From NCBI GenBank assembly GCA_963787835.1, contig CAWBEI010000002.1, positions 352,001-416,000 of the forward strand: a stretch of 64,000 nucleotides of DNA. Direction: 5' to 3'. The notes beneath the pieces are model-generated. The model worked only from the letters and a program-made list of their open reading frames with translations. It had not been told where the DNA came from and did not search any database. Positions within the stretch are counted from its first letter, which is position 1, and every line of letters starts with the position of its first letter. This document shows positions 2,010 through 52,772 of the stretch, piece by piece. This DNA comes from Ignavibacteriota bacterium. Lineage in GTDB: Bacteria; Bacteroidota; Ignavibacteria; Palsa-1295. A program made the translations under genes and the position numbers.

Positions 2010-2044
2010 ACCACCCCCCAGCCCCCTCCTTGAAAAGGAGGGGG
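2010..2044. repeat. Family A palindrome (CCACCCCCC-CCCCCTCCT-n-AGGAGGGGG), intergenic copy upstream of recA
   Basis: Same element at 10120, 19926, 42682, 52155, 52404. Confidence 0.8.
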
Positions 2045-2079
2045 TAATAAAAATCTTTTAATCGGAAAGCACTTAAACT

Positions 2080-3168
2080 ATGCAAGACACAGCAACGAGA
2101 GACGCGCGTAAGAAAGCACTCACGATCGCGATGGACGCGATCGAGAAAAATCACGGCAAGGGATCGGTCATGCGATTGGGCGATCAGCCGCATGTGAAAG
2201 TGGATGTGATCCCCACCGGCTCGCTTTCCATCGATGCTGCGATCGGCATTGGCGGCGTGCCGCGCGGCCGCGTGATCGAGATCTTCGGACCGGAATCCTC
2301 CGGTAAAACCACGCTGTGCCTGCATATCATCGCGGAAGCGCAAAAGCGCGGCGGAAACGCTGCTTTTATCGATGCCGAGCATGCACTCGATGTGAATTAC
2401 TCGAAGCGTCTCGGCGTGAATGTGGATGAGCTTATTCTCTCGCAGCCTGAATTTGGCGAACAGGCGCTTGATATTCTTGAACAGCTTGTGCGTTCGGCTG
2501 CGCTCGATGTCATTGTTGTCGATTCCGTTGCCGCGCTTACGCCTCGCGCAGAAATTGAAGGCGAAATGGGCGATGCGCAGATGGGATCTCATGCGCGGCT
2601 TATGTCGCAGGCCATGCGGAAAATTACGGCCGTTATCGGCAAATCCGGTACGACGGTTATCTTCACCAATCAATTACGCTCAAAGATCGGCGTGATGTAT
2701 GGCAATCCCGAAACAACGACGGGCGGCAATGCGCTGAAATTTTATGCCTCGGTGCGCCTGGATATTCGCCGCCGCGATGTCATTAAAGAAGGCACGGAAA
2801 TTATTGGCAATCGCGTGCGCGTGAAAGTCGTGAAGAACAAACTTGCGCCGCCATTCCGCGAAGTGGAGTTCGATGTGCTCTACAACGAAGGCATCTCGAA
2901 AATGGGCGATATGATCGATGTTGGCATCGAGAACGACATCATTCAGAAATCAGGCTCGTGGTTCTCCTTCGAAGGCGAGCGCATCGGCCAGGGACGCGAA
3001 TCTGTCAAGGCATTCCTGAAAGAAAATGCGGATTCCTTCGCAAAAGTTGAGAAAGCTGTGAGGAAAAAACTTGGTATCGAGATCGAAGGAATCGCCGGCA
3101 ACCTTGCGACGAATGGTGCCGTCGCAGCGGGCGGGGTGATCGAGGAGAAGAAAAAGAGGGCCACCTGA
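2080..3168 (+). CDS. recA: Recombinase RecA
   Basis: [43 protein letters not shown]. Confidence 0.99.
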
Positions 3169-3207
3169 ACCGGGATTTATGAGATGAATGGGATGTTTGG
3201 GATGGGT

Positions 3208-4182
3208 ATGAAACGATATCTTTTCATAATAGCAATTTTCGCATCATCCTGCTCGTCGAGTTCGACCTCACCAGGATCGGCTCCAAGCTATGGTTCGGGA
3301 GAGTTTGGTTTCACTGTGAACGGCCAGACCGTGGATCGTATCGGGGATGATAAAGGTACGGCCGCTTCGGCGACAATTGCAAGCAATTCTTGGCTAACAA
3401 TATCACTCACATACCCCGGTGAGCTACGAGGTTATGCAATGAATGGTGTAAACATAAGCCTGAAAATGTGGCAATTACGCACGGGCACTCTTGAAGTGAA
3501 AGGCAAATATAATCCTGTAACGCCGCAAGATTCAAATTGCGCAATTCCTTCGCTGCAGTATGTCGGTGTGGACGAATCAGTAGTTAGTACCTACCCGCAA
3601 GGGAGTGTGACTATAACGAAGATAGATACTTTGAATAACCTTGTCAGTGGTAGATTCCAATTCATTATAGACGATGCACCACTTCCTTACGATACCGTTA
3701 CCAATGGTTTCTTCAATGATGTTCCAATCATTACGGGTGGCGGAGGTTTTGCTGGATCTCTGTCTGGAATTCGGAACGATGACAATAATGGGGTATATCG
3801 CGACGACTCATTTCATTCCCCTAAAAATGGGATTGCATCAATAACATGTTACAAAGATGCTGGAACGAAAAATTTAGAAATTCAGGCCAATGTTTATTAT
3901 CCTGACGCAAGCTCTACCTATTTTAACATCACGCTGTACAATGCACAAGACGGATATTTCCCGTTTACCGGATACAGCGGAGGCGCATTCGGACTTTTTT
4001 CAGACAGTAATGGGGCGGATGGTGGCTTTTTCTCTGGTGGCATAACCATCACTAAATTTGATACTGTAAATCACCGATTTTCTGGATCATTTAGCATCAA
4101 TGCATCAGGTGGTGCGGGAGGGGTCACCTTCAATTCAACGTTCCAAGGCACAATCGATAGCGTCCGTTGGTATGATCTTTAG
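3208..4182 (+). CDS. Hypothetical lipoprotein with two repeated beta-rich domains
   Basis: MKRYLF..FASSC lipobox (start moved from 3184); duplicated ITK.DT.N...SG.F motif; AT-richer. Confidence 0.7.
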   Translation: MKRYLFIIAIFASSCSSSSTSPGSAPSYGSGEFGFTVNGQTVDRIGDDKGTAASATIASNSWLTISLTYPGELRGYAMNGVNISLKMWQLRTGTLEVKGKYNPVTPQDSNCAIPSLQYVGVDESVVSTYPQGSVTITKIDTLNNLVSGRFQFIIDDAPLPYDTVTNGFFNDVPIITGGGGFAGSLSGIRNDDNNGVYRDDSFHSPKNGIASITCYKDAGTKNLEIQANVYYPDASSTYFNITLYNAQDGYFPFTGYSGGAFGLFSDSNGADGGFFSGGITITKFDTVNHRFSGSFSINASGGAGGVTFNSTFQGTIDSVRWYDL

Positions 4183-4296
4183 GTTTTCAGACCATTACTC
4201 GACCGATAACCCATCGGCCTACAACGCAAAGTCCATGCTTGCTGTTATGGGATCGACCGTCAATAAGTAAATTTTCAAAAATTGGAGAATATAAAA

Positions 4297-4701
4297 ATGC
4301 TTCGAAGATTACTTCTTATTTCAATTGCATTCACCCTTGTCGCGTGTGCAACGCCTTATGTTAAAAATGCCGGTGGGCTGTTCAGCGGGAGCGGTTATCA
4401 GGATATACCCATCGATTCCACCACCTACCGCATCGTCTTCTACGGAAGCCACGGCGCCACAAGCCTGGAGCAAGTGGATCGGTATGCGTTTTACCGTTCC
4501 GCAGAGCTAACAGAAGAAAAAGGCTACGATTATTTCATCATCCAGCAAAGTGGCGCGGATGAAAAGAATCGCATCGCGTGGAATACCGTACGCATGTTCA
4601 AAGGCCAGCCTCCTGAAAACGATTTTGCCACGTTCGATGCGCGAACGGTCATAAGGGAAATGGCCCCGTACATTCAGCGAGGCGAGGAAGGAGCTAAATA
4701 G
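4297..4701 (+). CDS. Lipoprotein, CC0125/CC1285-like, paralog 1
   Basis: LVAC lipobox; GY.D......Y.I.F.G, YA.YRSAELT..KGYDYF. Confidence 0.75.
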   Translation: MLRRLLLISIAFTLVACATPYVKNAGGLFSGSGYQDIPIDSTTYRIVFYGSHGATSLEQVDRYAFYRSAELTEEKGYDYFIIQQSGADEKNRIAWNTVRMFKGQPPENDFATFDARTVIREMAPYIQRGEEGAK

Positions 4702-4783
4702 TCGGTATCCCATGTTTTGATTTTGTATTTGTGCTTTCTTTTCTTCCATTTTTTATTTCTTCAACCATTGCCGCTTTATCCTT

Positions 4784-5318
4784 ATGAAAAACAAACAGAG
4801 TGTCATCGCCGTGTTAGGGATCGGATTGTTGTTCTTAGCTTCCTGCGCTACAAAGTACGCACCAGCCACTGGCTCGTTTTGGGACGGCCATACCGGTTAT
4901 TCCGAGATCCCGCTCGATAGCACTATCTACCAAGTCACGTTCTGTGGTAATAATAATACCACAGATGAAGTTGTAAACCGGTATGCCCTTTACCGCTGTG
5001 CGGAACTTACCTCGCAGCGCGGGTTCGATTACTTCGAGGTACTCGATAATAACGATGTCGCCGCGATCACCTCGACCGTCAATCATAATAATACGCAGAA
5101 GACGGAAGTGGAGCACAAGGTCGATCCGCAAACCGGCAGAGTTGTCCCGGTGACCGTTACCACCAATAATGGAAGTTCCACCGTAACCACACAAGCTGCG
5201 CACACGGTAACGAAAACCATTCGGATGTTCCAGGGGGACCGTCCGGGCAGAAGACCCTAATGCCTTCGACGCCAAATCCATGGTTACAATGATGGCGCCG
5301 AGCATTCAGCGTCCATAA
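4784..5318 (+). CDS. Lipoprotein paralog 2, frameshifted near 5245-5260
   Basis: ORF stops at 5260; +1 frame continues PNAFDAKSMVTMMAPSIQRP* to 5318, matching the paralog C-termini. Confidence 0.75.
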
Positions 5319-5339
5319 GAACGCAATCCTATCCTTGCC

Positions 5340-5759: not shown

Positions 5760-5762
5760 GGT

Positions 5763-6431: not shown

Positions 6432-6470
6432 TCGCCCCATCATTCATCTTTCATCATTCAACATTGCCCC

Positions 6471-9171: not shown

Positions 9172-9172
9172 T

Positions 9173-9254
9173 TGTCATTCCCGCGAAAGAGGGAATCCAG
9201 ATCTTGAATGTCATCTCATTTCGGGTCTGGATTCCAGCTTTCGCGGGAATGACA
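9173..9254. repeat. Family C palindrome doublet (TGTCATTCCCGCG..GGGAATCCA / TGGATTCC..GCGGGAATGACA), 82 bp
   Basis: Second 82-bp copy at 55662-55743. Confidence 0.85.
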
Positions 9255-9388: not shown

Positions 9389-9997
9389 ATGACACTACAG
9401 GCAGCGAGCATTTCGGCTCGCGATAGCGAGAAGCACACGCGATTCATGGCCCTATTGGAGCCGTGCCTTGCGAAGCTTTCCCGTTACTGCCATGCGATGA
9501 CAAAGGATGTCGAGGATGGACGCGATCTGCTATCGGATGCGATCCTGCTGGCCTACGAGAACTTCGATAAACTTCGAGCGCCGGAAGCTTTCACGAGCTA
9601 TATCTTCACCACGGCGCGCCGGTTATTTTACCGGCGCGAGCGAAGAAAAAAGTTCTGGGGAGTATTCGGAAGCGAAGCGGAAGCCATCGCAGACGAGCGG
9701 GAACCCACGCCCGAGGTGCGTATAGATCTCGAAGCGCTCGACCGCGCACTGACGCAATTACCCGAAAAACAACGCGAGGCCGTGATACTTTTCGAAATTT
9801 CCGGGCTTTCGCTCGCGGAAATTCGGAACGTGCAGGGCGGATCGCTTTCGGGTGTGAAATCGCGCATTGTACGCGGACGCGAAAAGCTGGCTGAACTGCT
9901 CGGCGAGCGACCGCTCAGGCAGACAAGGACGCCTGCTCCACGTGAGACATCTTTTGAAAGATCGCAAGTCGCTTATATGATGAGGGAGAAACTATGA
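9389..9997 (+). CDS. ECF RNA polymerase sigma factor
   Basis: Region 2 (DLLSDAIL.AYENF..L), region 4 (LPEKQREAVIL..ISGLS..EI..VKSRIVRGREKL). Confidence 0.92.
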   Translation: MTLQAASISARDSEKHTRFMALLEPCLAKLSRYCHAMTKDVEDGRDLLSDAILLAYENFDKLRAPEAFTSYIFTTARRLFYRRERRKKFWGVFGSEAEAIADEREPTPEVRIDLEALDRALTQLPEKQREAVILFEISGLSLAEIRNVQGGSLSGVKSRIVRGREKLAELLGERPLRQTRTPAPRETSFERSQVAYMMREKL

Positions 9998-12480
9998 AGA
10001 ACGATACACTTCAACCATCCGAGAACTTAGCGAATCACTTCGCGCCTTACCGCGAGGAAGCGCCGCTGATCTCTCTTCCCGAAGTCGAAAAGCTCCTTAC
10101 CGGTAGTGCCACGCTGAAAAACCACCCCCCAACCCCCTCCTTCTTTAGGAGGGGGAGTTTCTTCAACAATAGGAGAATTCTTATGACACTCAGCGGAATC
10201 GCCGGACTTGCAACTTTCAGCTATTTTGCATTTTTTAGTAACCATTTTAATGGGACAATTGGGACTACTGCTACTAATGGGCCTAACACAACCCAGAGGT
10301 CCTATTTGACCCAGCCGTCCCATGACCTTGCCACTGATACACGTTCGCAGCTTGCAACACCTGCAAGCACTACTGCGAAACACACTTCACAGCTTCTCAA
10401 AACTGGCAACGTACATGGCCCCTGGAGCGCCGGCAACGACCAGTTCTACGCCGATCTCTCGCCGGAGGAATTAGCGAAGCTGGGGATTGTGGTGAATGCG
10501 GATACGGTTATAGCATATAAGTTACCACCAAATAAACCCCTCGAATCCATGCAGCTTACTGCCCATTCCATTGGAGGCGGTAACGCAAAAGCAACATTAC
10601 CTGCGGGTGTCAATCCACCAAGCTTTTTCCCTGTCCTTATGACCCGTAACAACGGACACGGTGCAGCTTTCGTCATCGAAGAAAAAGGCCGAACACAGGA
10701 ATGGGGAATGGTTTCAGATGATGAAGGGCAGAAAATGGTTCGGGATTGGCTACAATCACCCGGTACGCCAGGTTACTCCCCGATATGGTTCAAAACAAGT
10801 TCCTTTAAGATATCAGACACCTCCGTAGAAATCAATAAGTGGACACTCGAAGTTGGGAAAAATTTTGCTAAACCCCCAATGCCGTTCTGTGTGCCGAATA
10901 TAGACGGTCTTTCGGAAAGCACAAAAGCCGCACTCATGCAACTGGCCAATTATTATTCCGGCAAAGCGGAAAAACCTGATTTCACAATGCCCAAAAATCT
11001 TTTTCTCAATGTGGATACTGTTACGCCACAAAATATGCTGGATGAAATCGACAGCGAAGAAAATGATGCTACCATGACGCATCTTCGTTCAACAATGGCG
11101 CGCTTAAATGAACTTGTTCCTGTCATTGTTCGGCCCAAAGGCGGTTCCGGTGCGCCTGACACAAACGATTTCATCTTTTGGTACGAGCCAAGCGAAGCAC
11201 TATTCAATGCACTGCCGCCAGCACAAGCAGTAATATTCCGAGAGAAGTTGAATACACCCCCGCATTGCATGACATCACCAAATGCCGTACTGACGAGCGC
11301 GGAGGTTACCTTTTGCGTAGATCATCCACAAACTGTTCATATCACCGTGCGCGACCTGACCGGAAAGGATCGTATCAGTTGGGACAAAGCCGCAATTACT
11401 GGGGACAACGTCGATACATTCAGCACGGCGACTTTGGCTTCCGGCATGTATCTCGTCACTGTAAAAGATGACGATGGGAACGAACGCACCCGCCGCATGT
11501 GGATAGAGAATACACATCCGAAGGAGCCGGGATGGGAATATGAGAATATGAAACCCGACGCAGAGCATGCAATGGAAACATTCTCTACGTTTGGAGGAGA
11601 TACCACAGATAATATTCAAAAAGCGATTCTTAATATCACCTGCATCGTTATGGATAACGAAAAGCTTGCAAGTATTGGCATCGAAAACAATGATAGCCTT
11701 GCTGCATTCTACCATTCGACTACCAAAGCTGGAACTGTAGATTATGTCGGTGTTCTCCGGAATTCAAAAGTCAAATCATTATCAAAGGACCCAATAATAG
11801 ATGGAGTTAAGCCAAAATTTCTCCAGCTAAATGATATTACATCCGTGACCGTACCAACATTCCATCCATTGTTCGTTACAGATGGCCGTGGAGTTAAAAG
11901 ACTTTTCATGACTGATTTTTCCAACATACCAACATTCGATGCCGCCGAAAATCTTCGAAAGATTCACGAAATGAATAAGAAGTTCGATGAAGCTGACCAA
12001 CTCATCCCCATCCTACTTCGGGCCGATAATTCTTCCGATTCCGTCGGCTCTCGCGACCTCATCTTCTGGTACAAACCTACGCCGGAGTTCCTTGCGGCAC
12101 TTCCGGATTCCGAGCGAGCGGTTGCGCAAATGATGTCAAGCGGTACGAACAATCCTCCGGCTTCGGCAACCGATGTACACGGTGCAATCCAGGAAGCTAT
12201 TGCCTATCCAAATCCCTCGCATGGGAAGTTCAACGTCAACGTGACATTAAACGCCAAGCGCACGATCACGATCACACTTCGGAACTTGCTCGGCCAAGAG
12301 GCTGCCCCACCTGTTCAAACTTATCAAATGGGAATGTCCGCTACACCCAATAGCGTGACATATACCTACTCACCGTGGCCAACGCTCGATTTCAGCTCTG
12401 TACCAGAGGGCGTGTATCTCCTCGATATTTCCTCCGATCAGGGCGAACGATATATCGAGCGGGTGGTGATTGCGCATTGA
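9994..12480 (+). CDS. Putative anti-sigma/sensor: short N-terminus, TM, two copies of [unknown domain + T9SS CTD-like domain]
   Basis: ATGA overlap with sigma; TM at aa ~62-80; duplicated L.P...R..FWY.P....ALP; C-terminal YPNPS..G.YLL.. Confidence 0.7.
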   Translation: MKNDTLQPSENLANHFAPYREEAPLISLPEVEKLLTGSATLKNHPPTPSFFRRGSFFNNRRILMTLSGIAGLATFSYFAFFSNHFNGTIGTTATNGPNTTQRSYLTQPSHDLATDTRSQLATPASTTAKHTSQLLKTGNVHGPWSAGNDQFYADLSPEELAKLGIVVNADTVIAYKLPPNKPLESMQLTAHSIGGGNAKATLPAGVNPPSFFPVLMTRNNGHGAAFVIEEKGRTQEWGMVSDDEGQKMVRDWLQSPGTPGYSPIWFKTSSFKISDTSVEINKWTLEVGKNFAKPPMPFCVPNIDGLSESTKAALMQLANYYSGKAEKPDFTMPKNLFLNVDTVTPQNMLDEIDSEENDATMTHLRSTMARLNELVPVIVRPKGGSGAPDTNDFIFWYEPSEALFNALPPAQAVIFREKLNTPPHCMTSPNAVLTSAEVTFCVDHPQTVHITVRDLTGKDRISWDKAAITGDNVDTFSTATLASGMYLVTVKDDDGNERTRRMWIENTHPKEPGWEYENMKPDAEHAMETFSTFGGDTTDNIQKAILNITCIVMDNEKLASIGIENNDSLAAFYHSTTKAGTVDYVGVLRNSKVKSLSKDPIIDGVKPKFLQLNDITSVTVPTFHPLFVTDGRGVKRLFMTDFSNIPTFDAAENLRKIHEMNKKFDEADQLIPILLRADNSSDSVGSRDLIFWYKPTPEFLAALPDSERAVAQMMSSGTNNPPASATDVHGAIQEAIAYPNPSHGKFNVNVTLNAKRTITITLRNLLGQEAAPPVQTYQMGMSATPNSVTYTYSPWPTLDFSSVPEGVYLLDISSDQGERYIERVVIAH

Positions 12481-19626: not shown

Positions 19627-20700
19627 TTAGGGCTCCGTTCCGCTCCGGGGGTGCGCCTGATCATAGACGGATCTCATGCGCTCGATGGTAAGATGCGTGT
19701 ATCGCTGCGTGGTCCGCAGGGATTCGTGACCGAGTATCTCCTTTACCGCCCGAAGATCAGCTCCGTGATCGAGCAGATGAGTAGCCGTCGTATGCCGCAA
19801 CATGTGCGGATGTGCGCGGGACATGTCCGGTTGGCCTGCAAACGCCTTGGATACAATATCATACACCATTCTGGGCGTAAGTCGCTTGCCATTTTTTAGG
19901 AGAAATAGCGCGTGTGTGTCTTCAAAACCACCCCCTGGCCCCCTCCTTCTTAAGGAGGGGGAAATCGAACGGTGTGCCAAATATTCTTTGATGGCAGTCA
20001 CTGCTTTCGCTCCGATGGGAACGATGCGCTGTTTGGATCCTTTGCCGATCACGCGAACGGTGCGCGCCTTCAGGTCAAGCTCTCTGAGATCGATAGAACA
20101 TAGTTCCGACCGGCGAAGCCCGCTGGAATAGAGTAATTCTATAACGGCACGATCGCGGAGCGATAAGGAAGGAATCGCTGGAAGGGATGAAGGATGAGGG
20201 ATGAAGGATGAAGGTGGGAGCGAATTTCCTTCATCCTTCATCCTTCCAGCATCGTCGGCGATGCGTCCCTCATCCTTTTCCCGTGAGAGAACGTCCGCCA
20301 TTGCGCGTTCACTTACGACGTTTGGTAGATTCTTTTCTGCTTTAGGAGTCTTGAGGAGCCGGGCGGCATTGAATTCAAAAATTCCCTGCTTGACAAGGAA
20401 CTTCACGAACGACCGAACGGCCGCAAGCTTTCGGCCGATGGAGCTTGCTTTCATCGTCTTGGTAATTCCCTTTTGTGCCGGGTAAGCGGTCTGTTCGGAA
20501 AGCGTATGGAGATACCGGCGGAGGGCATAGAGATCGTCATGGGTGCCGGCGAGCACGAGGCGCTCCGATTTTAGGATACGGTAGAGATCGACGAGATCGC
20601 CTTCGTAGGCTTCAATGGTTTTGGGACTCGCCTCGCGCTCGTGTTCGAGGTATTCGAGAAAGGAGCGAAGCCATCGGGGGAAATCAGTGTAGAAATCCAT
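19627..20700 (-). CDS. xerC: Tyrosine recombinase XerC carrying two repeat-derived in-frame insertions
   Basis: RDRAVIELLYSSGLRRSE, GKGSKQR, HPHMLRH..ATHLLD.GADLR.V.E.LGH..L.TTQRYTH. Confidence 0.9.
   Translation of the reverse strand: MDFYTDFPRWLRSFLEYLEHEREASPKTIEAYEGDLVDLYRILKSERLVLAGTHDDLYALRRYLHTLSEQTAYPAQKGITKTMKASSIGRKLAAVRSFVKFLVKQGIFEFNAARLLKTPKAEKNLPNVVSERAMADVLSREKDEGRIADDAGRMKDEGNSLPPSSFIPHPSSLPAIPSLSLRDRAVIELLYSSGLRRSELCSIDLRELDLKARTVRVIGKGSKQRIVPIGAKAVTAIKEYLAHRSISPSLRRRGPGGGFEDTHALFLLKNGKRLTPRMVYDIVSKAFAGQPDMSRAHPHMLRHTTATHLLDHGADLRAVKEILGHESLRTTQRYTHLTIERMRSVYDQAHPRSGTEP
19926..19962. repeat. Family A palindrome in frame in xerC
   Basis: aaccaccccctggccccctccttcttaaggaggggga; encodes SPSLRRRGPGGGF. 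Confidence 0.85.
20182..20279. repeat. Inverted GGATGAA/TTCATCC heptamer arrays plus a GCATCGTCGGCGATGC palindrome, in frame in xerC
   Basis: Encodes KDEGRIADDAGRMKDEGNSLPPSSFIPHPSSL. Confidence 0.85.
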
Positions 20701-20760
20701 AGCCACCAGTTCGCCGGATGCATCGGCGACGATGCTGCTTCCGGTTTGTATCGAACGCTC

Positions 20761-42670: not shown

Positions 42671-42672
42671 CT

Positions 42673-43263
42673 ATGTTTTGGAACCACCCCCCAACCCCCT
42701 CCTTCTATAGGAGGGGGCTATTGCTTCTCTCATTCCTTGCGATTGCAGGATGCCATCCCTACGAATTCATTATGGGCGGGCCGCATGTCGTGAGTTGCGA
42801 GATACTTACTTCGCTGCCGGGAGTCGATCACAATGAGGATGTTGCAACCCTGCGTGACACCGCCGCGATCGATCTCAGTTATTTTGGCGCAACGCAGTAT
42901 CATATCAAAATGGGCGTGATGCTCCAGCATGGGGAAGGATTCCGAATTCTTCTTCGCCCTGTCGTGGAATACCGCGATGTAAAAGATTCCGGCATTATCG
43001 TGACGGCAACGCAGTCCGGAATTACGCTGGATTCCGGGCATCACCGGTTCCTGTCGAGGCCGGATGTAACGGTCACGCCCAATCAGATCATCCATGTTGC
43101 GCTGATGTCAGAGAATAACTACATGCAAGTGGTCTTCGATTGCGATACCGTCTATCGCGGCTGGACGAAGCGGAATGAATCCGATGATGTAGTCGTGCAG
43201 GCGCTTCAGGGCAGTGAAGTACAAGTCATTCAGCCCGATTGGGACGATCTGCCAGGGAGGTAA
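42673..43263 (+). CDS. Hypothetical lipoprotein; family A repeat (42682-42717) forms its n-region
   Basis: MFWNHPPTPSFYRRGLLLLSFLAIAGC. Confidence 0.7.
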   Translation: MFWNHPPTPSFYRRGLLLLSFLAIAGCHPYEFIMGGPHVVSCEILTSLPGVDHNEDVATLRDTAAIDLSYFGATQYHIKMGVMLQHGEGFRILLRPVVEYRDVKDSGIIVTATQSGITLDSGHHRFLSRPDVTVTPNQIIHVALMSENNYMQVVFDCDTVYRGWTKRNESDDVVVQALQGSEVQVIQPDWDDLPGR

Positions 43264-43353
43264 ATTTCCACATCGAATGTCCCTGATGAACAGGTAAAAA
43301 TTCGGCAATGTATCGACGGGCACTTGCACAGTAAATGCGTCGTTCTTCATTTT

Positions 43354-43563
43354 ATGCATACATACAGCACGGAAGCCATCATAAATAACGAAGGAAAGAT
43401 CGTGCTCTCTCTTCCGTTCAAAAAAGGTGAAAAGGTTGCTGTTGTCGTAACGCCGTTCACAGAGGCTCAAGAAGTGCTCGATGAGGAAGCCTGGATGCGC
43501 TTAGGCCTCGAACACTTTTTTAAAGACGATGCCGAAGGCGATGCCGCTTATGACCTTCTTTGA
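43354..43563 (+). CDS. Putative type II antitoxin
   Basis: Small ORF with acidic D..YD tail, 4 nt before the toxin. Confidence 0.7.
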   Translation: MHTYSTEAIINNEGKIVLSLPFKKGEKVAVVVTPFTEAQEVLDEEAWMRLGLEHFFKDDAEGDAAYDLL

Positions 43564-43567
43564 TTGA

Positions 43568-43897
43568 ATGGACGCGTACCAATTCGGCGATGTTGTCCTT
43601 GTAGATTTTCCGTTCTCAGACCGAAACGCCGAGAAGAGGCGCCCCGGATTGGTGCTCACGCAGGATTTGCACGGTGATCTGCTTATTGCACGTATCACGA
43701 GCAAAAACCTGGAACTTCCAACAGACATCACACTCGCGGATTGGAAACTCGCCGGCCTCAATATTCCATCAAACGTCAGATTGCTTAAATTGGCGACTAC
43801 TCATACGGCTTATGTATTGCGGAGATTGGGAAAGGCATCCGAAAACGACCGGCAAACGGCAATTAACGCGCTTCGGAAATTTCTCGATTCACTTTAG
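43568..43897 (+). CDS. PemK/MazF-family toxin
   Basis: GDVVLVDFPFSD...KRRP.LVL, ITS, DWK.AGL..PS.VR..KL.T. Confidence 0.92.
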   Translation: MDAYQFGDVVLVDFPFSDRNAEKRRPGLVLTQDLHGDLLIARITSKNLELPTDITLADWKLAGLNIPSNVRLLKLATTHTAYVLRRLGKASENDRQTAINALRKFLDSL

Positions 43898-43966
43898 AAG
43901 CAAATGATCAAGTCATTCAGCCGATTGGGATGATCTGCCGGGGTGGTAATTTATAAGAATGCCATA

Positions 43967-45235
43967 ATGAAGCTATTCTCTCTCTCTATTTTGAAACATG
44001 CAGCACTTATTGGGATGCTTTTTTGCCTCGCACCTAACGCACGGGCACAGCAAACCCAGCAAACCGATAGTATTGTTACTTCGCCGTGGGTTCAGGCCAG
44101 CACACCCAATCCGGGGGCAGCCGGTGCAAATTACCTCTCGCCTGATACCTGTTGGGGAGGCGATAATTTTAGCGCTCTTATTTCCACCGATGGTGGGATG
44201 AATTGGAGGAGTACCCCACATGGCGGCATTATGCGAAATGCACATGAAGGTTACGAATTCACTTCGTCCTGGATATACAAAACGATGGACGCATGGCAAA
44301 CATGGGATAGTGTTCCAACTCCGAATTCACATCTGGGTGCAGTTGTCATCGTTGATTCATTACACGTTTTCGCGAGTGGTCAGTACATTACTCGCACGAC
44401 CGATGGTGGAAAATCCTGGACCGTCTCTAACCCTGTAATCGGCACTGGCTCCATCGGTTTTGCGAATTTGATGGTTGGCTATGCCGTCGGTGGAAAAATT
44501 CAAGGACCCTTGCCAAGTCAAATCGGCATGGGTTGTCTCAAAACAGTCGATGGAGGCAATACTTGGAATCAAATTTATACCGGTATTCCAGGAGACGCCT
44601 ATGGGATAGCCGTGATCGATCCACTAAATGTGATCCTTGTCGGCGATGAGCTAATCTACCGAACAACTGATGGTGGAAATTCTTGGAATCAAATTACGTG
44701 GAACAATCCAACTCCAGGTGAGACCGGCCTTCTGGGAATATGTCTTCAAAATGGAATTGGTTATATTTCGGGCGCAACAGGGGGTGGGAATCCGGTCGGA
44801 CTTATCCTACGAAGCACGGATACTGGAAAAACATGGTCTTCTGAGCCATCCGGTGTGAATACACTATTATATGATCCTGAGATGTATGATGATTCAATAG
44901 CTACAGTTGGCGGGGATAGCGGAATATTCATTCGCAATGGGAATCTGGCCAGTATTTCATCGCCTTTAGTAGATTCCCTATCCATGCTGATTTTCCCAAA
45001 TCCTTCGCAATCGTTGGTGACACTTTCATATAACCTTCCCTCTCCACAAACAGTAACGCTTACAATTTGTGATGTTAATGGGAATATTGTTGGGACCCCG
45101 CTGAATGCGGCACCGCAGAATGCTGGGAGTCAATTATTCTCAATTAGCACTGCAAGGTTTGTTCCTGGAACGTATTATTACCAGCTCACCACAGGATTGC
45201 ATTCGGTTAACGGATCATTCGTCATCATCAAGTAG
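43967..45235 (+). CDS. YCF48/BNR-repeat protein with T9SS CTD
   Basis: Signal peptide; T.DGG..W repeats; IFPNPS..GTYYY CTD; AT-richer. Confidence 0.85.
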   Translation: MKLFSLSILKHAALIGMLFCLAPNARAQQTQQTDSIVTSPWVQASTPNPGAAGANYLSPDTCWGGDNFSALISTDGGMNWRSTPHGGIMRNAHEGYEFTSSWIYKTMDAWQTWDSVPTPNSHLGAVVIVDSLHVFASGQYITRTTDGGKSWTVSNPVIGTGSIGFANLMVGYAVGGKIQGPLPSQIGMGCLKTVDGGNTWNQIYTGIPGDAYGIAVIDPLNVILVGDELIYRTTDGGNSWNQITWNNPTPGETGLLGICLQNGIGYISGATGGGNPVGLILRSTDTGKTWSSEPSGVNTLLYDPEMYDDSIATVGGDSGIFIRNGNLASISSPLVDSLSMLIFPNPSQSLVTLSYNLPSPQTVTLTICDVNGNIVGTPLNAAPQNAGSQLFSISTARFVPGTYYYQLTTGLHSVNGSFVIIK

Positions 45236-45257
45236 GTCCTCAAATCCCCAATAACAA

Positions 45258-47525
45258 TCACATCGTCCCCAACGACGCTGTAACACCCCGCAAAATCCCC
45301 GTCGCCTTCTCCACGGCGCGAATCAGCTCTATGGTTGCGGCATTTGCCTGAGCGGCGTTCTTGGTGCGCAGCGCAATGCTCAGCGCGGGAAGTTCCAGAT
45401 CGGCATAGCCATTATCGGGGTCGGCAAGGACGAGAAGATTGCGTTCCCATTTATCGAAATAGAGTCCCTCGGGCGCCGTGAAGGCAAACCCCACATTTCG
45501 TAACTGCTGATTTACCGCATCTAACTGAGGCGCATTTTCCAGTAATTTCGAACCCTCGGAGAGTCCCTTGTTGTCCCGCGCTTCCGCAAATTGTTTGCTT
45601 GCTGTTATAAAGGTATCGATCGCGTGTTCGAGCGGCGCGAATCCGGAAGAATCGTGTACATGGGTCATCGCGAGAACCCTGGCGTGATGCACGGCGCCCC
45701 GCAGCCACTGCCCCAGCGCAGTGAAATCGAACGGAAGCACATCGGCATTCGCAAGGCGCATGGCCTCGACCGCTGCGAATTGCGAACACGCTGCGTGATA
45801 CCGAAAACTGGAATCGCCATAGTGCATCGTCCAGCCAATGTTATCGTGATTGGAATGATATTGCCCGAAGGGTCCGCCAAAACCATGCTCCAGCGATGGA
45901 ATTCCGAGATGATTGTAGAACGCGGAGAAATCGCTGCCGCCGCCGAGCAATCCGATCTCCGGCGGAACATCCTTCCCGTCCGTTTTTGGAGCATGCTCCA
46001 TCCATTTATCATAGACGGGGTTCCCGCTTCCATCCGGCACGGACTTACTTACCTCATACACCAGCGACCGAAGCGATGGATCGGCTCCCGCCGAGAACGA
46101 TGTTCCTGTCGCGCATTCATCCTGATTGATGTAGGCGATCGCCTTTGCGCCAAGCTCTTTCTCTAATTGCTCGACCCATTCCGTCGAGCCAAGCAAGCCC
46201 CATTCTTCGGCATCCCAGGTAACGAACAGTACCGATCGTTTCGGGCGAATACCCTCCGACTGCAGTTTTGCGAATGCTTCTGCCGCTGCGACTGAACTTG
46301 CACATCCCGAAGCATTATCTTCCGTTCCGTAGCACCATGCGTCGCGATGACCGCCGATGATGACCCACTCATCCGGCCACGTGGAACCCTTGACCATCGC
46401 AACGGTATTCCAGATCGATTTTAACCCCGTATCACACTCGACGTTCAGCTTCACCCGAACTGGCGAGTCATCTGCGGCCTCAACATGGTACCGAAATGCA
46501 AGCCCGCCCTGCCATGCGGCATTCGGAATATCATGTCCGTGCATCTGGCTTAGAATTTCCTGCGCGATACCATAGGAGATCGGGATAACGGGAATTTTCG
46601 GCGTGGGGTACATGGAGTCCGAAGGAACCCGACGCGCACCGGGAACCGAGGCGTAGCCAGGGGTGGTCGGGTCGCCGTGGCCATTATAGATGCTTCCGCG
46701 CTGCACGCCTCCGCTGGAACGCATCGGCCCGACGGGATAGACGTCGCCCTCATCGTAGCCATCGCCGGAGGGATCGGAATAAATGATAAGACCCGCCGCA
46801 CCGTGCAGCTCCGCAAGCTGCGCCTTGATGCCTCGGTAACTTTTTCCATACCGCGCGATCGCGATCTTGCCCTGCACGCTGATATGCAGGCTGTCGAGGA
46901 TATGATAATCCTCATGAAGCCCATAGTTCACATAAACCACATCACCCGACACCGTTCCGGAAGAAGAATAGCCATTGACCCACGGATACTCTTTACTGTT
47001 GGGATCGAATGCCGTTTTATCTTCGCGCAGATCGAAGGTTTTCTTTACCGGAGCTAGCATCTCCAGCGAAGAACTTTTCGCAAGCGGTATATCTACCTCA
47101 TACGGATAGATGTTCGTGGAAAGGCCTGCCTTCTTCCATCGGTCGATCACATAATCGCGCGTGCGGATCTGCGCGGGCGTGCCGGCAACATGCACCTCTT
47201 TGCTGATCGCGGTAACGATTGCACGGAGCGTATCGGGCTTTATCTCATCGATGAGTTTCTTTTCAATAGCACGCTCTTCGCGCGCGTTCGATGGGCTGAA
47301 GCCCGTCATTTGAGCAGCGGAAATTGTGGGGAAAATCGGAGCAACAACCCCAAGAATCACGAATGTCATTGCGAGGAGTCCCGGAGGGACGACGAAGCAA
47401 TCTCGGTTCGTGAGTGAGAGATTGCGTCGTCGAACGAATCCAGCATCGTGGGCGATGCGTCCTCCGGTCGATTCGCTCTCCTCGCAATGACGAAAAGAAA
47501 AATTAGTCCGAATCGATAATATCAC
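45258..47525 (-). CDS. M28B peptidase (glutamate carboxypeptidase II / transferrin-receptor-like); start uncertain
   Basis: PA domain VYVNYG..RYG...RG.K; GGHRDAW, DNASG, WDAEEWGL.GS.EW, GSD, YHS..D. Confidence 0.9.
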   Translation of the reverse strand: MILSIRTNFSFRHCEESESTGGRIAHDAGFVRRRNLSLTNRDCFVVPPGLLAMTFVILGVVAPIFPTISAAQMTGFSPSNAREERAIEKKLIDEIKPDTLRAIVTAISKEVHVAGTPAQIRTRDYVIDRWKKAGLSTNIYPYEVDIPLAKSSSLEMLAPVKKTFDLREDKTAFDPNSKEYPWVNGYSSSGTVSGDVVYVNYGLHEDYHILDSLHISVQGKIAIARYGKSYRGIKAQLAELHGAAGLIIYSDPSGDGYDEGDVYPVGPMRSSGGVQRGSIYNGHGDPTTPGYASVPGARRVPSDSMYPTPKIPVIPISYGIAQEILSQMHGHDIPNAAWQGGLAFRYHVEAADDSPVRVKLNVECDTGLKSIWNTVAMVKGSTWPDEWVIIGGHRDAWCYGTEDNASGCASSVAAAEAFAKLQSEGIRPKRSVLFVTWDAEEWGLLGSTEWVEQLEKELGAKAIAYINQDECATGTSFSAGADPSLRSLVYEVSKSVPDGSGNPVYDKWMEHAPKTDGKDVPPEIGLLGGGSDFSAFYNHLGIPSLEHGFGGPFGQYHSNHDNIGWTMHYGDSSFRYHAACSQFAAVEAMRLANADVLPFDFTALGQWLRGAVHHARVLAMTHVHDSSGFAPLEHAIDTFITASKQFAEARDNKGLSEGSKLLENAPQLDAVNQQLRNVGFAFTAPEGLYFDKWERNLLVLADPDNGYADLELPALSIALRTKNAAQANAATIELIRAVEKATGILRGVTASLGTM
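47364..47492. repeat. Family B palindrome with nested GCATCG..CGATGC palindrome, in frame at the M28 N-terminus
   Basis: Encodes RHCEES..RNL..RDCFV..LLAMT. Confidence 0.85.
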
Positions 47526-47532
47526 TAAAAAA

Positions 47533-48279
47533 CTATTTGATCTTAATAAGCTTCGAGGAATGATATTTGGTATTGGCCTGAAGATCGGTCACTTCAAGGC
47601 GCAGGACATAGCTGCCTTTATCCAATTTTTTTCCGACGTCGGATTTTTCATCGAAGGCCGTCTCGTAATAGCCGGGAGTTTTCATGGCCTCGAACGGGAA
47701 ATTTCGCACCGTTTTGCCCATCATGTTTTCGAGCGTAAGCTTAACGGTCCCGCGCGTCTTGAGGCCGAACTGGAACGTCCATTTGTGCTTCTTATACTTA
47801 ACATCCGTGATGCTCGTCTCTTTCGGGATGGGTACGATCTCGGGCGGAGCCACACCGCGAGCCGAAACCTTGAGCGGAACGGTATCGCCCTGGAAAATGG
47901 CGAGAATTTTAGTCTCGTATGGCCTGACCTCATCGGCCTTGAAGCACAGGTTCAGATAAAAGGTGGTGTTCGAGCCGATGGTAAGCGGCATCATCTCCTT
48001 CGTCGGGGAAGTGACGTAAAAATGCTTGGGATCGAGGGAGCGCAGTTCGGTTAGGAGGCGGGGATGGTCGGTGGTGTTATCGATGGCCACGTTCACGCAA
48101 TTCTCGATGCCCGTGCTTTGCGGTGCAAACGAAAGCTCACTGCGCTCGAACGCCAGCGAGCCGCCATCATGGCCAAGCTCCATAGGCGCCTGAGCGTGCT
48201 CGAACTGAGCAAATGAAGGAACAGAGATAAATGCTAACGAGATAGCGACGAACGTTCGGAACATAGGCTTCAAAATCAT
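47533..48279 (-). CDS. Secreted protein with Ig-like and FlgD/CTD-like domains
   Basis: Signal peptide; L.N.MGK.VR...D.KSD.GKKL..G.Y.LRL. Confidence 0.7.
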   Translation of the reverse strand: MILKPMFRTFVAISLAFISVPSFAQFEHAQAPMELGHDGGSLAFERSELSFAPQSTGIENCVNVAIDNTTDHPRLLTELRSLDPKHFYVTSPTKEMMPLTIGSNTTFYLNLCFKADEVRPYETKILAIFQGDTVPLKVSARGVAPPEIVPIPKETSITDVKYKKHKWTFQFGLKTRGTVKLTLENMMGKTVRNFPFEAMKTPGYYETAFDEKSDVGKKLDKGSYVLRLEVTDLQANTKYHSSKLIKIK

Positions 48280-48325
48280 GCCGAGGTAAACGATGAGGGC
48301 GGGCGCTCGGTTCGGGCACTCTGCC

Positions 48326-49081
48326 TCACTTCTGAATTAGGATTTTGAAGAATTGCCCGGAAAGATTTGCATAGATCACCCCATTCGGCTGGTTCGAGAC
48401 ATCAACGGTTAGCAGCCCATCGGATGATACAATTGGTAACTTAATTCGTCTGCCTAACGGATCGTAAAATGAAATGCTGTCGGATGACGGGACTCCCTGG
48501 ACAAAGAATTCAGAAGTACAAGGTTGAGGCCATGAATCGATAGAGGGACTTGTTAAGTGGGAATTTACACCTTCATAAAAAAGCGGTCGCCCCCCAAAGT
48601 TAGCACCAATAAAACTATTAATTTCGGGTAGGAGAGATAGATAATACTTGCCAGTATCGGTATTCGTATAATTTTCAAAATTTACATACCAGTTTTTTGC
48701 AGTAACAGTGTCGCCTGGTGTGACAAGTTGCATTGTAAACGGCCCCAATCTCTGTTCGATTGAATCAAATCCAGCTCGAATCCCAGCGTAAGCAGTATCG
48801 ATATCCTTCCAAGTCCGCACACTCGAATCGTCCATCGTATCAGGTACAATAAAATAGAGAAAACCAACAACGAATTCATTTTTTGCGAATTCAGCATATT
48901 GTTGGGTACCAGGGCACATATCAACCTTTACGCTATCAGGGTTAAACCAAACCACTCCCTGCGGCTTTAAAGGTGAATCTTGCCAAGGTACAAGGCACGA
49001 GGAATCGACTTGCTGCGCCCCGGCATGATCTGTCATGGCAAGAATCAGTAGAGCTGAGAAAAAAACGATTCGTTTCAGCAT
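48326..49081 (-). CDS. Secreted hypothetical protein with a degenerate T9SS CTD
   Basis: MLKRIVFF signal; WPQP..YDPLGR..G..Y..K.L tail; AT-richer. Confidence 0.7.
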   Translation of the reverse strand: MLKRIVFFSALLILAMTDHAGAQQVDSSCLVPWQDSPLKPQGVVWFNPDSVKVDMCPGTQQYAEFAKNEFVVGFLYFIVPDTMDDSSVRTWKDIDTAYAGIRAGFDSIEQRLGPFTMQLVTPGDTVTAKNWYVNFENYTNTDTGKYYLSLLPEINSFIGANFGGRPLFYEGVNSHLTSPSIDSWPQPCTSEFFVQGVPSSDSISFYDPLGRRIKLPIVSSDGLLTVDVSNQPNGVIYANLSGQFFKILIQK

Positions 49082-49164
49082 TATTTCCCCACATCTGAAA
49101 AATAGCAGAAATCTATGAAATGGGAACACTCAAACAGCGAAATAATGCCATAAAGAGCGTCCGA

Positions 49165-49294
49165 CACGCGGGATGCCCAAGAGGGCGGGCATCCCGCGGC
49201 GGACAAAGCATCGTTGCCGATGCTTTTTAGCATCATTGCCAATGCTTTTAGCATCGCTGCCGATACTTCCAGCATCGTGACCGGCTGTAGCATA
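49165..49294. repeat. GC hairpin followed by degenerate ~21-bp tandem palindromes (AGCATC.TTGCC.ATGCT)
   Basis: cgcgggatgccc..gggcatcccgcg; gcatcgttgccgatgc / gcatcattgccaatgc / gcatcgctgccgatac. Confidence 0.65.
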
Positions 49295-49577
49295 TCGGCC
49301 TCGATGCGCGCTCATTGTGTTGGTTTTTTGCCCGCGCAAGGTCACTCGTCATCTACATCCGGAGGAGAGATGTTTGGAGCATTGCTCGCGAGGCAAACCT
49401 TGCATGATCGCTCATGCTAGATGATTTTCATCTATGATGACGGTTCATCTCTTGCCAGCGGCGTATCGTTTGACCAAAACGTTACGCGCCGGATACATTA
49501 GAAAGAACTTGCCTCGGGGAGTTTTGTTACAGGTCAGCTCGTACATTTTTCGTAAAAAATCTTTACAAAACTACAAT

Positions 49578-49715
49578 TGTCATCCTGAGCGGAGTTTTCC
49601 GTAGCGGAGCGAAGAAAAACGGAGTCCAAGGATCTTTGGTAGGGCACGAGATTCTTCGACTCCGCAAAAGGTTGTCCGCTGGGGCGGACTACCTTTTGCT
49701 CCGCTCAGAATGACA
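49578..49715. repeat. Family D palindrome
   Basis: tgtcatcctgagcggag..ctccgctcagaatgaca. Confidence 0.82.
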
Positions 49716-49728
49716 GGCTAATCTGATA

Positions 49729-50769
49729 ATGAATCCAAAAAAACGAAATAATATCCTTACGGGGCTCTTGGGTGCTATCGCGCTATTGGCTTGCTTTGTT
49801 GGTTGTAATAAAGAAAAGGAACCTGCCCCCGAACCGGAAAAGCCTGCGGCCTCGACGATCCCGGCCATACCACCGCTGCCTGTTCCCGGCTTCAATGCCG
49901 ATCATGCCTTTGCCGATATGAAAACCCAGGTGTCATTTGGCCCGAGGGTTCCGAATACCGCAGCTCACGAAAAAGCGGTGCACTGGCTCTACGACCAGCT
50001 TTCGCAATGCTGTTCTAACGTCGATATCCAGCCCTTCGCGGATTCCGGCTACGGCGAAACGCTGCATCTCACGAACGTTATAGCCTCATTCAATCCTTCG
50101 GCAACGTGGCGCGTGCTCATTCTCACCCATTTCGATTCCCGCCCATGGGCCGATGAGGATCCCGATTCGACCAAGCATGGAAAGCCGGTTCCCGCCGCGA
50201 ACGATGGCGGTTCGGGCGTTGGCGTGATGATGGAACTCGCGCGGCAAATGAAAGACCATCCGCCGCCCATCGGGGTCGATCTGTTCTTCGACGATGGCGA
50301 AGATTACGGCAAAGATAAGATCGATGGCGATGCCCACTTTTTCCTCGGTGTTAAATATTTCCTGAGCGTAAAACAAGCAAATTACGCTCCTCGATTTGCG
50401 ATATTGCTCGATATGGTGGGCGATACGAATGCTTATTTCATTCCCGAATCAACTTCGGAGCAAGCAGCTTCCGTGTATGTCAATGAAATTTGGAGCACGG
50501 CTAACAGACTGGGCCTCAGCCATTTCCATACCGACCGGCAAACCGCGATCGATGACGATCACATCCCGCTCATTAAAGCGGGCATTCCTTCCGTGGATAT
50601 TATTGATGGCGATCTGGTCGGCCATCAATCCTCGGACCCGAACCGGAAATATTGGCACACGGTCGATGATCTTCCGAAACATATTTCCCGCGAGACCATG
50701 GATGAAGTGGGACGACTGCTGCTCACGTTGATCTATCAGCAACTGCCGCAAGACGTTCCCAATCTGTAA
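49729..50769 (+). CDS. M28 peptidase / glutaminyl-cyclase-like lipoprotein
   Basis: FVGC lipobox; FGPRVPN, H.DSRPWAD, ANDGGSGV, DGEDYG, LLDMVG, DDH.P, YWHT. Confidence 0.88.
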   Translation: MNPKKRNNILTGLLGAIALLACFVGCNKEKEPAPEPEKPAASTIPAIPPLPVPGFNADHAFADMKTQVSFGPRVPNTAAHEKAVHWLYDQLSQCCSNVDIQPFADSGYGETLHLTNVIASFNPSATWRVLILTHFDSRPWADEDPDSTKHGKPVPAANDGGSGVGVMMELARQMKDHPPPIGVDLFFDDGEDYGKDKIDGDAHFFLGVKYFLSVKQANYAPRFAILLDMVGDTNAYFIPESTSEQAASVYVNEIWSTANRLGLSHFHTDRQTAIDDDHIPLIKAGIPSVDIIDGDLVGHQSSDPNRKYWHTVDDLPKHISRETMDEVGRLLLTLIYQQLPQDVPNL

Positions 50770-50785
50770 TGCGCTTATCTCTGCA

Positions 50786-50913
50786 TGTCATTGCGAGGAG
50801 AATGAATCGACCGAAGGGAGATTCATTCGACGAAACAATCTCAAACGTGCAGCCGAGAGATTGCTTCGTTGGAATCACTCCGCTTCGCTCCGTGATTCCT
50901 CCTCGCAATGACA
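50786..50913. repeat. Family B palindrome upstream of prmA; terminal ATG is in frame with prmA
   Basis: tgtcattgcgaggag..cctcgcaatgaca. Confidence 0.9.
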
Positions 50914-50931
50914 CAATGGCCGATAAATAGG

Positions 50932-51795
50932 ATGAACGAGAAATACGCATCTCTCCTTTTCAATGTCAGCACGAAGGAGTTGCCATCCCTCGAAGGATTT
51001 TTTCTAACCCACACTTCTTTTGCGGGTTCGCAGGAGAACGATGATGGCTCGATCACTTTTTTCGTTCCTTCGGAAGATTGGAATGCCGAACTTCATTCGC
51101 TGATCAACGAATTCTGCGGCGCACATCCTGAACTGGAGTTTATCGGCGCGGAGATCATCGAAGACCGCGACTGGAATGCCGAATGGGAAGCCACCATCGA
51201 CCCCATGCAGGCAACGCCCGAACTTGTCATCACTCCTTCGTGGAAGATGGATGATGCGAAAGCGTTGGGATCCAAATATATCATCACCATCGATCCTAAA
51301 ATGAGCTTCGGCACCGGTCATCATGAAACGACGCGGCTGTGCCTTGCAGCATCTGAAACGCTTGATATGACTGGCCGCTCGGTGCTCGATATTGGAACGG
51401 GTTCCGGCGTGCTTGCCATCTATGCGCTGCTGCGCGGCGCAACTCATGCGATCGGCATAGATACCGATTCCTGGGCTATCGCTAACACGCTGGAGAATCG
51501 GGAGCTTAATGCACTGTCCGATCAACAATTCGAAGTGCGTCAGGGAACCCTCGATGTTGTGCGTGAAGGCGAGATGTTCGATGTGATCTTCGCTAACATT
51601 CACCGGAATGTGCTCTTAGAGGTCGCGAAGCAGATCCGAAGCCATGCAGCAACCGGCGCGCATGTGATTCTTTCCGGCATTCTTGTTTATGATGCTGCTG
51701 AAATACGCGCGGCATACGAAAAAGCGAATTTTACGATCGTGCGCGAATTGCAGGAAAATGAATGGACGTGCCTCATCTTCCGATCATGCGAGTAG
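50932..51795 (+). CDS. prmA: Ribosomal protein L11 methyltransferase
   Basis: DWN..W, IDPKMSFGTGHHETT, LDIGTGSGVL, ANI, LSGIL. Confidence 0.95.
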   Translation: MNEKYASLLFNVSTKELPSLEGFFLTHTSFAGSQENDDGSITFFVPSEDWNAELHSLINEFCGAHPELEFIGAEIIEDRDWNAEWEATIDPMQATPELVITPSWKMDDAKALGSKYIITIDPKMSFGTGHHETTRLCLAASETLDMTGRSVLDIGTGSGVLAIYALLRGATHAIGIDTDSWAIANTLENRELNALSDQQFEVRQGTLDVVREGEMFDVIFANIHRNVLLEVAKQIRSHAATGAHVILSGILVYDAAEIRAAYEKANFTIVRELQENEWTCLIFRSCE

Positions 51796-52772
51796 CCGCA
51801 TTAGATATTGGCACCAACACGGTCCTACTCCTCATTGCAGATGTGGATGGAGAAAAATTCCGCGTTATTCGTGATGTCCACGCGATAGCCCGGATTGGCG
51901 AAGGCGTCGATCGAACACACCACATTAGTGAGGCCGCATGTGCACGATTTCTCGCTATTCTCCGTGAGCATCAAAAGACGATTGCAGAGTTCCATTGCGA
52001 CCGTATCATTGCCGCAGCAACCAGCGCCATGCGCGATGCCGATAACCGCGAGGATATCATCCGGCGAACAAAAGAAGATACCGGGATCGACATTACGATA
52101 CTGAGCGGCGAGGACGAAGCTCGCCTGACGTATCGTGGTGCGGTCGTTGGAATGACCACCCCCCAACGCATGATCGATCATGCGTTACCCTCTCCTTCTA
52201 TAGGAGGGGGAGCAGTAAGTAATATTACTGTAGTTGACATCGGCGGCGGAAGCACCGAAATTTCCGTCGGGACGGGCGATGCATTCGAGCGCGGGATAAG
52301 TCTCGATATTGGCGCGGTGAGGCTTACGGAACGATTTTTTGCAACGACCCCAATTACATCTGATGCGATTCGTGAAGCACGACAGGCTATTCGCCAATCG
52401 CTTAACCACCCCCCAGCCCCCTCCTATTCCGCTTCGCTGCATAGGAGGGGGAGTATGCTTATAGCCGTCGCTGGTACACCGACTACGTTAGCTGCTCTGC
52501 ATCAGGAACTTCCTGCATTCGATGCAGCGAAAGTGCATGGCTACGTATTGCATCGGCAAGCGATCCAGGAAATGCTGGATATGCTTTTCAGTGTGAGTAC
52601 GGAGGAACTTCTTCAAAGATACCCGGCCGTTAATAAATCCCGTGCCGATATTTTACCGGCGGGCACACTTATCCTTGCAGAAGTGATGGATCACCTCGAA
52701 GCCGAGCAAATTACGGTGAGTACGCAGGGGTTGAGGTATGGGATAATATCAGAACCGGGATTACGCGGATGA
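51786..52772 (+). CDS. ppx: Ppx/GppA-family phosphatase carrying two in-frame family A repeats
   Basis: DIGTNT, ATSAMRDA.N, G.DEA, DIGGGSTE, G.VRLTE, RADI..AG, GLRYG. Confidence 0.92.
   Translation: MRVAALDIGTNTVLLLIADVDGEKFRVIRDVHAIARIGEGVDRTHHISEAACARFLAILREHQKTIAEFHCDRIIAAATSAMRDADNREDIIRRTKEDTGIDITILSGEDEARLTYRGAVVGMTTPQRMIDHALPSPSIGGGAVSNITVVDIGGGSTEISVGTGDAFERGISLDIGAVRLTERFFATTPITSDAIREARQAIRQSLNHPPAPSYSASLHRRGSMLIAVAGTPTTLAALHQELPAFDAAKVHGYVLHRQAIQEMLDMLFSVSTEELLQRYPAVNKSRADILPAGTLILAEVMDHLEAEQITVSTQGLRYGIISEPGLRG

Follow-up and report, generated by a model that had tools for sequence, protein, structure and literature searches.

How does a palindrome of a few tens of nucleotides come to lie in frame inside unrelated protein genes, and what carries it there? 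The question is raised by a stretch of 64,000 nucleotides from an Ignavibacteriota bacterium (assembly GCA_963787835.1, contig CAWBEI010000002.1, positions 352,001 to 416,000), referred to below as the window (G000:C2:352001-416000; the genome, G000, measures 3.57 Mb in 7 contigs). A preliminary description reported six copies of a palindromic element, here called family A, and concluded that this lineage has a peptide-inserting repeat system that colonises housekeeping enzymes. Comparison with orthologs indicates that the copies are true lineage-specific in-frame insertions. As to the carrier, we are inclined to believe that family A is the miniature form of a selfish element built around a DUF559 nuclease gene.

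Results

All six copies were found within one base of the positions first given. Five of them are in frame, in three reading frames, with the quoted peptides present in the translations. A family A unit consists of an unpaired C-rich leader (ACCACCCCCC in full-length copies), a stem of 9-11 bp and a variable loop. Its length is 36-37 or 48-49 nt, so the earlier figure of about 36 bp suits the short copies only, and the earlier coordinates are shifted by one. The exact core, CCCCCTCCT-N-AGGAGGGG, is present in four short copies (at 2022, 10133, 19939 and 42695) and had no match in 100 shuffles. Hairpin folding was found for all six copies (z from -2.3 to -5.3). A chance origin of the family was ruled out by shuffle, Markov and reversed-genome controls.

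The gene ppx (51762..52772, forward strand, Pfam Ppx-GppA) holds two copies, both on the forward strand. At site 1 (52155..52212) the copy is composite: the leader is followed by a nested 16-nt palindrome, GCATGATCGATCATGC, starting at 52168, and then by the hairpin. The copy at site 2 (52405..52453, NHPPAPSYSASLHRRGS) is of the long-loop form (48-49 nt), its loop being 12 nt longer. In xerC (19627..20706, reverse strand, XerC-type integrase by Pfam) the forward-strand copy at 19927..19962 is read antisense, at residues ~249-261. The copy at 10121..10157 (forward strand) is read as NHPPTPSFFRRGS near the N terminus of an 828-aa sigma-coupled protein with a C-terminal domain of the type IX secretion system (T9SS; 9994-12480, Pfam). 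That at 42683..42717 (forward strand) is read as NHPPTPSFYRRG in the N-terminal part of the predicted signal peptide of a 202-aa predicted lipoprotein (42655-43263; lipobox-like LAIAGC, start codon uncertain, no Pfam match). The sigma-coupled protein, the lipoprotein and ppx site 2 use one sense frame, ppx site 1 a second, and xerC an antisense frame. The sixth copy (2010..2045, forward strand) is indeed intergenic, 34 nt upstream of recA.

The insertions become evident when orthologs are aligned. At Ppx site 1 the hairpin is present in 4 of 14 same-genus orthologs (two of these being sister variants) and at site 2 in 5 of 14, while 15 proteins from outside the genus have short loops at both sites. 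Among 13 same-genus XerC orthologs, five have a family A or sister hairpin, two have possibly decayed copies and six have none; the insert peptide was not seen in nine more distant proteins. Shared ancestral peptides are ruled out by these alignments, and the inserts in XerC and Ppx, absent from many orthologs, are real. The site in the sigma-coupled protein is filled in one relative (G005) and empty in three (G002, G014 and G006), which retain a GACCACCC stub. For the lipoprotein, G006 has a copy at the site and G002, G014, G009 and G005 have none. The recA-proximal copy is also found in G014, G006 and G009, and G002 has only a C-rich stub there. A Ppx tree built without the insert columns gives two changes for site 1 and three for site 2; its starred branches are compatible with one origin.

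The inserts fall between the conserved motifs of both enzymes, as had been noted, and these motifs are intact. XerC has R198, K222, H301, R304, H327 and Y336, none of which varies among 23 aligned orthologs, and Ppx G17-T18-N19, E119 and DIGGGSTE are invariant in 29; the catalytic roles of these residues are established for both families. In AlphaFold models the inserts are predicted to lie in surface loops or linkers, outside the secondary-structure elements and with a reduced predicted local distance difference test score (pLDDT). Ppx site 1 is modelled as a loop between helix 116-127 and strand 155-160 (pLDDT 54-73) and site 2 lies between helix 200-215 and strand 232-236 (pLDDT 77-90). The XerC insert is a low-confidence loop after helix 233-248 (pLDDT ~62, in a model with a predicted template modelling score of 0.47).

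Twenty hand-chosen comparisons of filled and empty sites (one region being used twice) show a net gain of 0-51 nt, mostly below the element length, and two of them resemble clean 36-nt blocks. The notion of a peptide-inserting repeat is right as to the reality of the inserts and incomplete in that many of them take the place of native loop residues. Of the two marks of a MITE, target-site duplication is not visible in these comparisons, the flanks of which have diverged, and terminal inverted repeats are lacking in single copies.

The same protein loop may carry different repeats in different species. This is the case for three XerC loops. In the CoaBC loop, three genomes have family A, one has another palindrome and two have heptamer-like repeats, and the TsaD loop holds, depending on the species, a doublet, a single copy, a sister variant, an unrelated palindrome or nothing. 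In the window, xerC carries a second, unrelated in-frame insert (20182..20276, reverse strand), which is composed of a GGATGAA/TTCATCC heptamer palindrome and a short GCATCG palindrome and falls in the linker that joins the two domains; in relatives this site is empty or holds other repeats.

The genome was searched with a profile at a cut-off of 12 bits (the reversed genome scored at most 11.2; 7 weaker hits were dropped), and genes were called with a purpose-built Markov model, which gave 85% coding sequence and leaves start codons uncertain. Of 55 copies scoring at least 12 bits, 41 are in gene calls, and 42 after one "intergenic" copy was placed in a split peptidase gene; the genome-wide count is therefore mostly coding, distributed over 35 host genes. 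Eight of the 13 remaining copies belong to a 3.3-kb DUF559 cluster considered below. Outside this cluster 42 of 47 copies are genic, close to the coding share of the genome. We found neither peptides shared by orthologs without the palindrome, nor pseudogenes as the rule among hosts, nor copies that are almost all intergenic.

Host proteins were scanned in two sets (21 and 13). They include TsaD, UbiE/MenG, NusB, inositol monophosphatase, a UvrD/PcrA helicase, RarA, transketolase, EgtB and biotin carboxylase, along with T9SS-tail, portal-like, secreted and unknown proteins. Family A is thus present in housekeeping genes (tsaD, ubiE/menG, nusB, uvrD, rarA and tkt, in addition to xerC and ppx), as the preliminary description held, with no sign that it seeks them. 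Targeting of such genes is unsupported, considering that the coding share outside the cluster is close to that of the genome and that the hosts are mixed.

All six frames are used (7, 6, 7, 3, 7 and 9 of 39 scored copies). The 22 full matches have on average 4.3 of 6 frames open, compared with 2.1 and 1.3 for two longer families (~126 and 144 nt), which offers a neutral reason for the success of family A in genes. Among 13 other motif classes, 12 are 0-39% genic and one (n=7) is 57% genic. The 39 coding copies contain no stop codon against 12.2 expected; this figure is partly circular, because gene calls need open frames, and we do not use it as main evidence.

Two further observations concern the copies themselves. 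Small palindromes (GCATGATCGATCATGC and the GCATCG type) are nested inside family A copies at window 52168-52183, C4:215699 and C2:1543527. Many paralogues share a copy at an identical position in their T9SS C-terminal domain (C2:326434-328392, C4:140183-145031, and loci L126, L136, L138, L143, L151, L155, L171-L173 and L175), and this copy therefore spread with the domain or by conversion.

The exact core is present in all 14 same-genus genomes (1-91 times per genome); the counts are 0-11 per genome in 10 genomes of the same family and 0-3 in 16 others. Copies are mostly coding in G002 (19 of 21; 23 in all) and G014 (10 of 13). In G006 restriction-modification-like genes, recognised by motif, contain five in-frame copies at one locus (L141, G006:C7:7500-10100) and two at another (L164). 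In four low-depth DNA contig sets from one study no joint was found across any copy at window 42000-53500, which is uninformative on strain polymorphism.

What may carry family A is suggested by a gene outside the window. A solo DUF559 gene (G000:C2:1483339-1483737) is flanked by family A copies, three to its left and two to its right, with an inverted pair on each side. The second DUF559 gene of the genome (C5:324220-324540) is bracketed by a different hairpin (CCCTCTC). The surroundings of the first (G000:C2:1480384-1484700, L325) contain small accessory genes spaced by hairpin copies, with gene order and content differing in G006, and look like a repeat-spaced cassette array. The DUF559 cassette is absent from the orthologous place in G006, G014 and G002.

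The association extends well beyond this genome. In relatives and loci from GTDB taken together, a CCC-arm hairpin is present in 93 of 125 flanks of solo DUF559 genes vs 6 of 113 distal windows. A CCCTCCT hairpin lies at most 250 nt from DUF559 in 50 of 71 GTDB loci, which belong to Bacteroidota, Ignavibacteriota, Zixiibacteriota, Acidobacteriota, Pseudomonadota, Fibrobacterota, Spirochaetota and Nitrospirota; with the same hairpin in several phyla, the system cannot be regarded as private to the lineage. In a tree of 98 DUF559 proteins all 55 CCCTCCT-flanked ones fall in one clade of 78 rows (Shimodaira-Hasegawa-like approximate likelihood ratio support 95) and none of the 20 outside it are so flanked; the second DUF559 of our genome is outside the clade. 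In the low-copy genomes G016, G023 and G031 several of the few copies adjoin DUF559 genes.

At 31 of the 71 GTDB loci DUF559 is inside a long open reading frame, with the hairpin on at least one side in 30 of the 31. The 17 such frames scanned included restriction-modification proteins, methylmalonyl-CoA mutase fusions, methionine synthase, UvrC and an aminotransferase, and these fused forms gave no intein Pfam hit. In G009 the DUF559 frame continues across a family A copy into a sequence with an RNase H-like motif. Each of the putative catalytic residues (E, Q, D, E-x-D-G and H) is conserved in 94-100% of the 98 proteins, solo and fused. The solo protein is 121-132 aa long and nearly all DUF559 domain, with no N-terminal NUMOD/HTH region. 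The only solved relative found by phmmer is 3HRL; there was no match to 3R3P. Rfam gave only sub-threshold hairpin matches on two DUF559 loci. No open-literature paper linking DUF559 to flanking palindromes was found by title or abstract start, in a search that left subscription journals mostly uncovered.

A parallel nuclease-repeat system may exist in the same genome. Of five solo GIY-YIG genes, three have a GTCAT-starting palindrome family of their own on either side, and one more has it on a single side (C2:1473150, C2:1244874, C2:1256678 and C2:1221612); one such family has copies at window 12502, 31783 and 50787.

Discussion

We consider it somewhat probable that family A is the gene-less miniature of a selfish element, the complete form of which would be a Vsr-like DUF559 nuclease gene bracketed by the same hairpins. 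The nuclease would nick DNA, and host repair would then fill the break with a copy of a hairpin, frequently at the cost of a few native bases and with no target duplication to be seen. Landing sites may be provided by C-rich stubs and by older repeats, and this would account for the reuse of the same loops. Copies that cause a frameshift, bring in a stop codon or fall in a protein core would be lost by selection. The better survival of family A within genes, compared with neighbouring families, would be due to its small size, to length differences among its variants that are mostly multiples of three, and to the majority of its frames being open. The insert peptides are likely to be neutral passengers.

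Several observations weigh against this explanation. The same loops also host unrelated repeats, so the choice of loop is not nuclease-specific. DUF559 was not found in three same-genus genomes (85-99% complete) that hold 10-14 copies. The DUF559 tree is a quick one of 124 columns; resemblance to this protein decided which rows went in, and related rows do not count as independent. Relatives have only ~70-88% DNA identity, so that junctions and target duplications are not exactly readable. G006 is less coding-rich, with 26-28 of 50 examined copies coding (79 in all) and 22-24 of 50 intergenic. A DUF559-domain protein of Caulobacter has been proposed as a mismatch-repair enzyme (PMC12907096, in its available part). 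Finally, the statement that no host frame is broken is true of the window and fails for the genome: two of the 35 hosts, mazG and an M1 peptidase gene, are broken at the element in this assembly. In mazG (C2:1514065-1514966) the frameshift is inside the element, and mazG of G014 is also shifted; in the M1 peptidase gene (C2:751439-754678) a stop lies between two head-to-head copies. Both have continuous frames in most relatives.

The strongest competitor dispenses with an enzyme: hairpins would spread by template switching, slippage or gene conversion at C/G runs, and DUF559 would be a passenger that lands on hairpins or is captured between two copies. The reuse of loops by unrelated repeats, heptamer arrays included, is as expected under such spread, the replacement-type junctions and C-rich stubs fit recombination, and the genus members with copies and no DUF559 match speak for it as well. 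What it leaves unexplained is that hairpin type goes with the clade of the nuclease in different phyla, that the two DUF559 genes of this genome have unlike hairpins, and that in G016, G023 and G031 several of the few copies are beside DUF559 genes; we therefore regard enzyme-free spread as rather unlikely, though a serious contender. It is tempting to see in family A an ordinary repetitive extragenic palindrome (REP) moved in trans by a REP-associated tyrosine transposase (RAYT) or IS200-type Y1 transposase, considering that the genome has nine Y1 loci, that one of them (window 1291-1758, with a different repeat pair on its 3-prime side at 792-1047) is 250 nt from the recA-proximal copy, and that head-to-head family A doublets resemble REPINs. 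None of the nine loci is bracketed by family A, however, the recA-proximal copy is common to relatives, and the GTAG or CGTC tag described in the available part of PMC3733652 is lacking; this mover seems improbable to us.

Slightly less credit still can be given to retention of the copies for a host function, be it a ribosome-pausing mRNA hairpin, an internal AGGAGG ribosome-binding site or a useful peptide. The lipoprotein copy (window 42655-42760) is the source of the basic residues that precede the hydrophobic stretch of the predicted signal peptide, and its AGGAGG precedes by 6 nt a TTG that may be a downstream start; the basic residues, the sites common across species (ppx site 2, coaBC, tsaD) and the copy common to many T9SS-tail paralogues are in keeping with a function. 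The use of six frames and both orientations, however, yields unrelated peptides, and sites are often empty or occupied by other repeats in close relatives. An assembly or gene-calling artefact is very hard to believe. Single-base errors do exist: in coaBC (C2:1365791-1366960), which is split by a frameshift outside the element, the extra base is absent from one short-read contig and is thus likely to be an assembly error. The frame of nadA (C4:349721-350876) is also split outside the element. The gene prfB (C4:330820) was called without its N terminus, presumably owing to its programmed frameshift. Against an artefact, the inserts lie within conserved enzymes and recur in independent genomes, and independent contigs hold the copies plus their flanks; for XerC, Ppx, TsaD and CoaBC it is refuted by the ortholog alignments.

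Among known systems, Rickettsia palindromic elements (RPEs) are like family A in being palindromes placed in frame in unrelated conserved genes, with some intergenic copies (PMC10969869 and PMC2229807, available parts), and the enzyme encoded by gmk tolerates such an insert, as reviewed in the available part of PMC2229807. RPEs measure 105-146 bp and have terminal inverted repeats (same part of PMC2229807), whereas family A has 36-49 nt, one hairpin and an unpaired C-rich leader. The available parts of both papers name no mobiliser of RPEs, proven or otherwise, while family A is tied to a DUF559 gene, belongs to another lineage and uses six frames. Nor are RPEs the only in-frame precedent, since REPs lying in frame inside genes have been reported in several species (Di Nocera et al. 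2013, PMC3733652, available part).

The REP/REPIN-RAYT system (REPtron) shares with family A a short one-sided hairpin with a tail, head-to-head doublets, copies around a cognate enzyme gene and a fraction of copies that are genic and in frame. It differs in its GTAG/CGTC terminal tetranucleotide, in that REPs are mostly extragenic and family A is mostly coding in G000, and in the bracketed gene, which is an HUH tyrosine transposase there and a PD-(D/E)XK Vsr-like nuclease here, with a cassette that is also found in frame inside host genes. Family A works like an RPE-type coding palindrome, yet it belongs neither to RPEs nor to REPtrons on size, tag and enzyme type. Coding palindromes have reportedly been described, judging by titles, for Wolbachia (WPE) and Methanocaldococcus jannaschii, and cyanobacterial small dispersed repeats are said to be further palindromes with coding potential.

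That a Vsr-like domain can drive mobility is indicated by the EDxHD homing endonucleases (PMC3239194). I-Bth0305I, according to the same paper, is a Vsr-related nuclease on a mobile element and has ~260 aa and N-terminal DNA-binding modules; it resides in a self-splicing intron. Its acidic and histidine motif is similar to that of our protein (ELDGxxHD), which has only ~121-132 aa. VsrA of Caulobacter is also a solitary DUF559 protein with no linked methyltransferase gene; it is proposed to be a very-short-patch repair enzyme, and the available part of PMC12907096 does not mention flanking repeats or mobility.

Conclusions

In a wider form, which we hold to be evenly balanced between right and wrong, the proposal is that selfish DNA of this type forms a widespread class. 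The enzyme that copies the hairpins flanking its own gene would be a minimal Vsr-like (DUF559) nuclease in place of an HUH transposase; the full cassette and the 36-48-nt miniature would enter genes in frame without splicing; the miniature, amplified in this genus, would lie in genes at close to the chance frequency except around the nuclease gene; and several repeat families would alternate in the same loops. The presence of two DUF559 genes in one genome, each with its own hairpin type, makes specificity testable by a swap.

If the nuclease is not the mover, we have one more lineage with coding palindromes. What is new in either case is a genus in which the miniature has amplified, filled and empty sites are numerous, more than one repeat family makes use of the same loops and a single genome holds two nuclease-hairpin pairs; the filled and empty loops over 15 species also chart the tolerance of housekeeping enzymes to insertion. 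If the nuclease is the mover, REP-like replicators would extend beyond those served by HUH transposases, and many of the DUF559 "domains" found within enzymes would be unspliced selfish inserts.

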